From the NCBI RefSeq assembly GCF_003334335.1, contig NZ_QOWQ01000066.1: a stretch of DNA of 9,411 bases; one strand, given 5' to 3'. How positions within the stretch are numbered: the stretch's first letter is position 1; every line of letters begins with the position of its first letter. The notes below the pieces were generated by a model, which worked only from the letters and a program-made list of their open reading frames with translations, was not told where the DNA came from and did not search any database. Below are positions 7,854-8,038 of the stretch, piece by piece. Position numbers and translations under genes: made by a program. The DNA is from Escherichia coli (GTDB lineage Bacteria > Pseudomonadota > Gammaproteobacteria > Enterobacterales > Enterobacteriaceae).

Positions 7854-8038
7854 TGGTTAATGGTCTGCGAAAAGGCAGCTGAATCTCTTCATCATGCAGA
7901 ACGGAATTGCACACAACGGACTGATACTTCTCTGGCGGATGAGAGAGGGGAAGCATTTATGTCCGGGAAAAACCACTTTATCTGAGCATGCTGTTTTGTA
8001 CCTGCCGGTATCCACATTTGTGGGTACCGGCTTTTTTA
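7830..8038 (+). ncRNA. isrC: IsrC-like small RNA / terminated flu leader transcript (boundaries approximate)
   Basis: In K-12, IsrC (~195 nt) lies between yeeP and flu on the flu strand. Here an intrinsic terminator ends at ~8038, about 200 nt downstream of the switch region. The 5' end cannot be set from sequence alone. Confidence 0.4.
8005..8038 (+). terminator. Rho-independent terminator in the flu 5' leader
   Basis: Stem ccggtatccaca (8005..8016) pairs with tgtgggtaccgg (8019..8030) with one mismatch, followed by T6 (8032..8037). Located 25 bp upstream of the flu ATG. Confidence 0.6.

Follow-up and report, generated by a model that had tools for sequence, protein, structure and literature searches.

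The hairpin and T run that precede flu (agn43) in this Escherichia coli sequence are confirmed as a real, highly conserved intrinsic terminator. The element has already been described, both as the 3′ end of the IsrC/IS102 RNA and as an attenuator of agn43, and is in this respect an ordinary finding. Taken as one explanation of the data, a Rho-independent terminator of the agn43 (flu) leader that serves as an attenuator over the Dam/OxyR switch, and whose read-through is raised by translation of an upstream open reading frame (uORF), appears to us very probable.

The flu leader, its terminator and the IsrC RNA

The coding sequence of flu/agn43 starts at position 8063 on the plus strand, and its first 449 codons (8063–9411) run off the window, by which we mean the whole 9,411-nt stretch of DNA analyzed. 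Its identity is given by a match to NCBIfam NF033177 (auto_Ag43, E = 4e-251) and by the 99.4%-identical locus L002, annotated in RefSeq as "agn43: autotransporter adhesin Ag43." According to the annotation of L002, a yeeP-type GTPase gene (6819–7691, plus strand), which is intact here and a pseudogene in K-12, lies upstream of flu, and this GTPase–flu gene order is the same in K-12 and in all other E. coli loci fetched. Farther upstream, the same annotation places a YfjI-family gene at 4105–5658 on the minus strand; window positions 2551–9411 align to L002, and the upstream context matches a CP4-44-like island.

By homology, the sigma-70 promoter of agn43/flu was located at 7776–7804 on the plus strand (−35 TTGCGT, 7776–7781; 17-nt spacer; −10 TAGAAT, 7799–7804), and the alignment shows that the promoter block TAATAGAATAAAACGATC is identical in K-12. 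G7810, which is located 6 nt after the −10 TAGAAT, is the equivalent of the 5′ end of K-12 isrC. The Dam/OxyR phase-variation switch, as read from the sequence, extends over 7810–7845, with GATC sites at 7810 and 7842. Its middle Dam site is mutated to GATA (7829–7832, with A at 7832), so that two GATC sites are left. Of the 134 sampled leaders, 121 have three GATC sites, that of L002 among them, and none of the 3340 E. coli genomes with a match to the 81-nt segment 7795–7875 reproduces it exactly, the best match having one mismatch. This private change at 7832, which also creates a perfect palindrome, ATCGATAGTTACTATCGAT, at 7826–7844, could affect phase switching.

Both the promoter and the start-site equivalent G7810 lie upstream of the hairpin in the K-12 alignment, which places the terminator inside the flu 5′ UTR, as the first-pass annotation had claimed. 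On the plus strand, a 5′ arm, GCCGGTATCCAC (8004–8015), pairs with a 3′ arm, GTGGGTACCGGC (8020–8031), both arms being supported by the sequence, the consensus scan, and the fold; the fold leaves between them the loop ATTT (8016–8019), at which ATTT, GTTT, TTTT, and ATCT occur across alleles. The stem thus comprises 12 pairs, 8 of them G-C, closed by a loop of 4 nt, and directly after C8031 comes the T6 tract (8032–8037, plus strand), the U tract of the terminator and the 3′ end of IsrC. From the end of the T run (8037) to the flu ATG (8063) the gap is exactly 25 nt, in agreement with the spacing given in the first-pass annotation. The 12 pairs proposed there were also recovered, but the mismatch described among them is a U8011·G8024 wobble according to both the sequence and the fold, and the first base of the stem is 8004, not 8005. 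The flu Shine-Dalgarno sequence AAGGA (8051–8055, plus strand) lies outside the hairpin and is not sequestered, as judged from the sequence and the fold. Because the reverse strand carries no T tail at this hairpin, the terminator is unidirectional.

Among the 16 terminator-like sites that the consensus scan found in the window (8.2 ± 2.7 in shuffles), the flu hairpin ranks first. The 51-nt segment that contains it has a folding energy of −23.5 kcal/mol in RNAfold (z = −5.78), a stability reached by none of 200 dinucleotide shuffles, and the hairpin is kept in both the minimum free energy (MFE) and the centroid folds of the whole 228-nt leader, as it is in those of the K-12 leader (195 nt).

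The flu leader up to the terminator (7810–8037, plus strand, about 228 nt here) is the equivalent of IsrC/IS102, on the basis of Rfam family RF00124 and of the K-12 alignment, IS102 being the older name of IsrC. RF00124 (IS102) matches the plus strand at 7808–8044 with 67.8 bits (gathering score 46; E = 6.1e-10), the match covers model positions 1–206 of 206 without truncation, and no other Rfam family scores above its gathering score in the window. The flu hairpin corresponds to the 3′ terminal helix of the model, followed by UUUUUUAUUCACC, and the middle of the RNA could be aligned to the model only through large insertions. The location is also that of IsrC, between the yeeP-type GTPase ORF, which ends at 7691, and flu, at 8063, and on the same strand as flu. 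In the record of E. coli K-12 MG1655, the ncRNA isrC (b4435) extends over 2071317–2071511 and flu begins at 2071539; isrC begins with the G of the first GATC and finishes, 28 nt ahead of flu, on the T that closes the homologous T run. The first-pass proposal that the hairpin forms the 3′ end of IsrC is thus borne out by the terminal helix of the Rfam model and by the K-12 annotation. Because the 5′ G of K-12 isrC corresponds to G7810, the short RNA predicted here runs from 7810 to about 8037, roughly 228 nt; a short leader species is indeed predicted, as in the first-pass annotation, but it is longer than the ∼200 nt given there for this allele. The two RNAs therefore share the 5′ end (first GATC), the 3′ end (T run), and the genomic slot, and differ in length (∼228 nt here vs. 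195 nt in K-12).

In a pairwise alignment of this allele with K-12, the stem is identical and one loop base differs, and the T6 tract, ATTCACCCTC, the Shine-Dalgarno sequence, and the first codons of flu are the same. In both alleles the terminator lies downstream of the Dam/OxyR promoter and shortly before the Ag43 start, the T run being followed by the ATG after 25 nt in this allele and after 27 nt in K-12. By its stem, T6, ATTCACCCTC, Shine-Dalgarno sequence, and place before flu, it is the same element, although the leader that precedes the hairpin is ∼33 nt longer in this allele and strongly diverged, and the ATG that has the frame of flu is another one (7988).

The sRNA defined by the agn43 leader terminator dates from the sRNA screens of the early 2000s. 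Wallecha, Oreh, van der Woude, and deHaseth are said to have described in 2014 a Rho-independent terminator located 28 bp before the main agn43 start codon of K-12 and functional in vitro. Antitermination, or read-through, of agn43 reportedly declines in their work as cultures age, and two in-frame start codons reportedly flank the terminator, translation from the upstream one boosting expression. The reported distance of 28 bp fits K-12, because in our K-12 locus (L001) the T run ends at 1512 and the ATG is at 1540. In papers that cite Wallecha et al. 2014 (J Bacteriol 196:2728–2735), flu is described as subject to antitermination or attenuation at IsrC, and the entry "IsrC sRNA (flu gene attenuation)" appears in PMC5811629. 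For K-12, the second layer of control above phase variation that the first-pass annotation had suggested was thus already in the literature. Among the 3′ ends of MG1655 that are listed in the Term-seq tables of Adams et al. (2021), none is on the plus strand near 2071511, where isrC ends; this could be explained by phase-OFF cultures.

Conservation among agn43/cah alleles

Of 5426 complete E. coli genomes, 4120 carry the 81-nt block that surrounds the hairpin (7990–8070), in a median of 2 and a maximum of 7 copies each; among the 4124 records with a match, 2314 have a best placement with an identity of 99% or more. Copies of this block precede genes annotated as agn43, as cah, or as members of the Ag43/Cah family. 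The leader and terminator block was also observed on plasmids, three times, each time before an Ag43/Cah/AIDA-repeat autotransporter gene. Because up to 7 copies per genome, as well as the plasmid copies, precede genes of the Ag43/Cah type, the attenuator travels with the gene family.

The leader upstream of this block is far less uniform. In megablast, K-12 could be aligned to this allele only from window position 7999 on, the upstream part being too diverged and its pairwise alignment poor. We describe variation in a set of 136 sampled loci, which includes 13 further diverse E. coli loci and 120 metagenome contigs; the contigs were retrieved with a pattern in which TACCTG and TTTTTTATTCACCCTC were fixed and the hairpin interior was free, so that the fixed flanks do not count towards conservation. 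The form of the hairpin seen in the window (U·G pair, loop AUUU) is found in 73 of these 136 loci. U-A at the wobble pair together with the loop AUCU accounts for 20 loci, the loop UUUU for another 20, and the K-12 loop GUUU for 15; C-G replaces the wobble pair in 3 loci, and in 1 further locus this substitution is accompanied by a change of the loop-closing C-G to U·G. The T run is extended to T7 in 2 loci, and the stem is weakened in the last 2, by one deletion and by one A·C mismatch, respectively. Nine of the 12 stem pairs are invariant across the 136 loci, and changes are almost confined to the loop and to the wobble pair, which may be U·G, U-A, or C-G. Measured against the commonest pair, none of the pairs had both of its bases changed, and a shuffle control matched the observed covariation in 244 of 500 trials, which is not significant. 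With 9 pairs invariant and no significant covariation, the case for the structure rests on thermodynamics and conservation. When the 101 distinct leaders are compared, 7–10 of every 10 columns are variable over most of the leader upstream of 7993 versus 1–3 in the hairpin; the values for the promoter and first-GATC blocks are 4–5 of 10.

The combined Shine-Dalgarno and start pattern of flu had no exact match in viral contigs or in GTDB species representatives. When the flanking pattern was searched in GTDB species representatives irrespective of the hairpin, the sole match was L016 (JAIJJM010000521.1, 2300 bp), a contig assigned to a "Collinsella sp." metagenome-assembled genome (MAG). An actinobacterial MAG thus contains an agn43 leader of the E. 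coli type; this contig is most likely a misbinned Enterobacteriaceae contig. Because exact-pattern scans miss diverged copies, these searches do not prove absence outside E. coli. One further locus, L008 (E. coli LR-46, NZ_AP027537.1, 197637–198373), has a leader that is intact as far as the 3′ arm of the terminator (GTGGGTA) and continues into unrelated sequence (locus positions ∼361–400). This junction within the 3′ arm indicates a deletion or rearrangement breakpoint inside the hairpin that removed the flu start.

Open reading frames across the terminator

In K-12, an ATG located 52 codons upstream of flu and in frame with it reads through the hairpin as LYLPVSTFVGTGFFIHP. In the window, the homologue of this start, ATG 7894, opens an upstream ORF of 52 codons predicted from the sequence (7894–8052, plus strand), which traverses the hairpin in the frame that gives LYLPVSTFVGTGFFIHP in K-12 and continues through the T run. 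Because there are 2 nt fewer after the T run than in K-12, this ORF is not in the frame of flu and ends with a TAA (8050–8052) directly next to the flu Shine-Dalgarno sequence. Another ATG precedes the hairpin by 16 nt and shares the frame of flu, from whose start it lies 25 codons upstream (7988–8062, plus strand); this putative start is found in 83 of the 134 complete leaders. Close to it lies an ORF of 8 codons (7959–7985, encoding MSGKNHFI followed by a stop), preceded by the best Shine-Dalgarno-like sequence of the leader (GAGG, 7945–7948, 10 nt before its ATG); its TGA sits 2 nt before ATG 7988, and the segment is conserved in window-type leaders only.

All 134 complete leaders contain an ORF that is started by an ATG and extends through the hairpin and the T run, the arrangement known from pyrBI-type leader ORFs. 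These ORFs cross the hairpin in any of the three frames, use at least three non-homologous start codons, and are kept despite indels of 1, 2, and 6 nt. They are either fused to flu or end at positions −13 (TAA), −17 (TGA), or −2 (TGA) relative to the flu ATG. In most alleles, including this one, the ORF is separate from Ag43 rather than forming an N-terminal extension as in K-12, and the K-12 arrangement is the minority form among the sampled alleles. The encoded peptides are not conserved between allele families and are devoid of regulatory codon runs, which sets them apart from trp-type leader peptides, and no recognizable Shine-Dalgarno sequence was found for the upstream ATGs.

That an ORF crosses the terminator in every leader, despite the indels, in three frames and from differing starts, fits a reading in which its translation has been selected. 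An ORF with its ATG at least 70 nt before the hairpin occurs in 12–28% of dinucleotide shuffles of single leaders, and one with any ATG in 37–76%; as the sampled alleles are related by descent, the significance of the pattern is only suggestive. That a translated ORF across the terminator is a universal, selected trait of Ag43/Cah leaders, in which the translating and not the peptide sets the level of read-through, is thus a proposal that we make tentatively and consider somewhat less than probable. If it were true, one and the same ribosome could both suppress termination and pass on to the initiation of flu, given that the TAA adjoins the Shine-Dalgarno sequence.

Attenuation, alternative explanations and known systems

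In the scheme that we propose, the phase-variable sigma-70 promoter would initiate transcription at G7810 in the first GATC, and RNA polymerase would synthesize ∼195 nt of leader before it meets the GC-rich hairpin (8004–8031) and the U6 tract (8032–8037). Some polymerases would be released there, giving rise to the short IsrC/IS102 RNA of about 228 nt in this allele, and the flu mRNA would come only from those that read through. Because only read-through would yield flu mRNA, the terminator would constitute an attenuator layered on the Dam/OxyR ON/OFF switch. Read-through would most likely be raised by translation of the upstream ORF across the hairpin, a ribosome close behind the polymerase covering the 5′ arm and thereby preventing the hairpin from forming, in the manner of pyrBI and without an antiterminator helix. 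Our analysis makes ribosome occupancy a moderately likely mechanism of read-through. If the ORF through the terminator is functional, the lack of conservation of its peptides points to the act of translation. The termination and read-through behavior of K-12 presumably applies to this allele as well.

Several other explanations may be considered for the hairpin and for its read-through. A chance or DNA-level palindrome, such as a protein-binding site, without any function in RNA, might be invoked because, out of 100 dinucleotide shuffles of the entire window, 3 contained on one strand or the other a stem of at least 12 pairs (G·T allowed) followed by a T-rich tail. This explanation is effectively refuted by the fold z-score (−5.8), the full-length Rfam match, the presence of the block in 4120 of 5426 genomes with a hairpin that is nearly invariant across allele families, the annotated 3′ end of the K-12 sRNA on the T run, and the termination in K-12 described in the literature cited above, and its probability is minute. 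It is also unlikely that the hairpin mainly terminates transcription of the upstream yeeP-like GTPase gene, or other read-through, and so insulates flu instead of regulating flu's own transcripts. The GTPase gene lies directly upstream in every E. coli locus fetched, and there is no other plus-strand terminator-like site between its stop (7691) and the hairpin. However, the hairpin is located ∼195 nt downstream of the flu transcription start and must therefore act on flu transcripts too, and IsrC, the RNA whose 3′ end lies at this site in K-12, has its 5′ end at the start site of flu, the yeeP copy of that strain being a pseudogene. The hairpin probably also stops read-through from the GTPase gene, a role that is compatible with that of an attenuator, the two not being mutually exclusive.

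We give little credence to the idea that IsrC is primarily a free-standing, trans-acting sRNA, in which the hairpin and U6 would form an Hfq-type terminator module and the effect on flu would be incidental. To our knowledge, no trans target or mechanism has been described for IsrC. In its favor, the K-12 record treats isrC as an ncRNA gene, Rfam devotes a family to it, and in one screen, according to PMC10783499, knock-down of IsrC altered lycopene yield, an unrelated phenotype. On the other hand, conservation between allele families is poor in the body of the RNA, in contrast to a nearly invariant terminator, which is the opposite of what a conserved seed would predict, and RNAs of the IsrC type are always found in cis, before a gene of the Ag43/Cah family. 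As to read-through, it might be set not by ribosome occupancy but by leader-peptide attenuation of the trp type or by an antiterminator protein, RfaH for example, in line with the presence of an ORF in the leader and with the repression of Ag43 by RfaH reported in PMC10268239. This appears improbable because neither the MFE nor the centroid folds of the 228-nt (this allele) and 195-nt (K-12) leaders, which represent the two allele families, contain a competing antiterminator helix. Moreover, the leader peptides are, as noted above, neither conserved nor equipped with a regulatory codon run, and no ops element (GGCGGTAGnnTG) was found on the non-template strand of 7810–8062, even when up to 2 mismatches were allowed.

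Accounts of the expression of Ag43, a major adhesin of autoaggregation and biofilm formation, are usually limited to the Dam/OxyR ON/OFF switch. With attenuation at the leader terminator, cells in the ON phase could still tune their Ag43 output, the IsrC RNA being made as a by-product. Because this point was made experimentally for K-12 in 2014, our finding adds no new biology, and what goes beyond the known element, the allele survey and the pattern of ORFs through the terminator, is modest. The survey adds that the terminator is nearly invariant across very diverse agn43/cah alleles while the remaining leader drifts, and that the ORF through the terminator is retained in all sampled alleles, the K-12 in-frame form being in the minority. 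These additions may be useful for extending the K-12 model to pathogenic alleles.

Like the attenuators of the trp, his, and leu operons, the agn43 5′ leader has a terminator with a short ORF upstream, but neither an alternative antiterminator pairing of the 2:3 type nor regulatory codon runs or a conserved peptide were found in it. The pyrBI attenuator of E. coli is coupled to translation, and its leader ORF extends through the terminator. The agn43 leader differs from it in having no identified UTP-sensitive U-rich pause cluster or other metabolic signal and no Shine-Dalgarno sequence at its upstream starts; the likeness is thus one of mechanism and not of family membership, the coupling being only predicted here. 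It consists in a leader ORF that crosses an intrinsic terminator just before the structural gene, an arrangement in which no antiterminator helix is needed.
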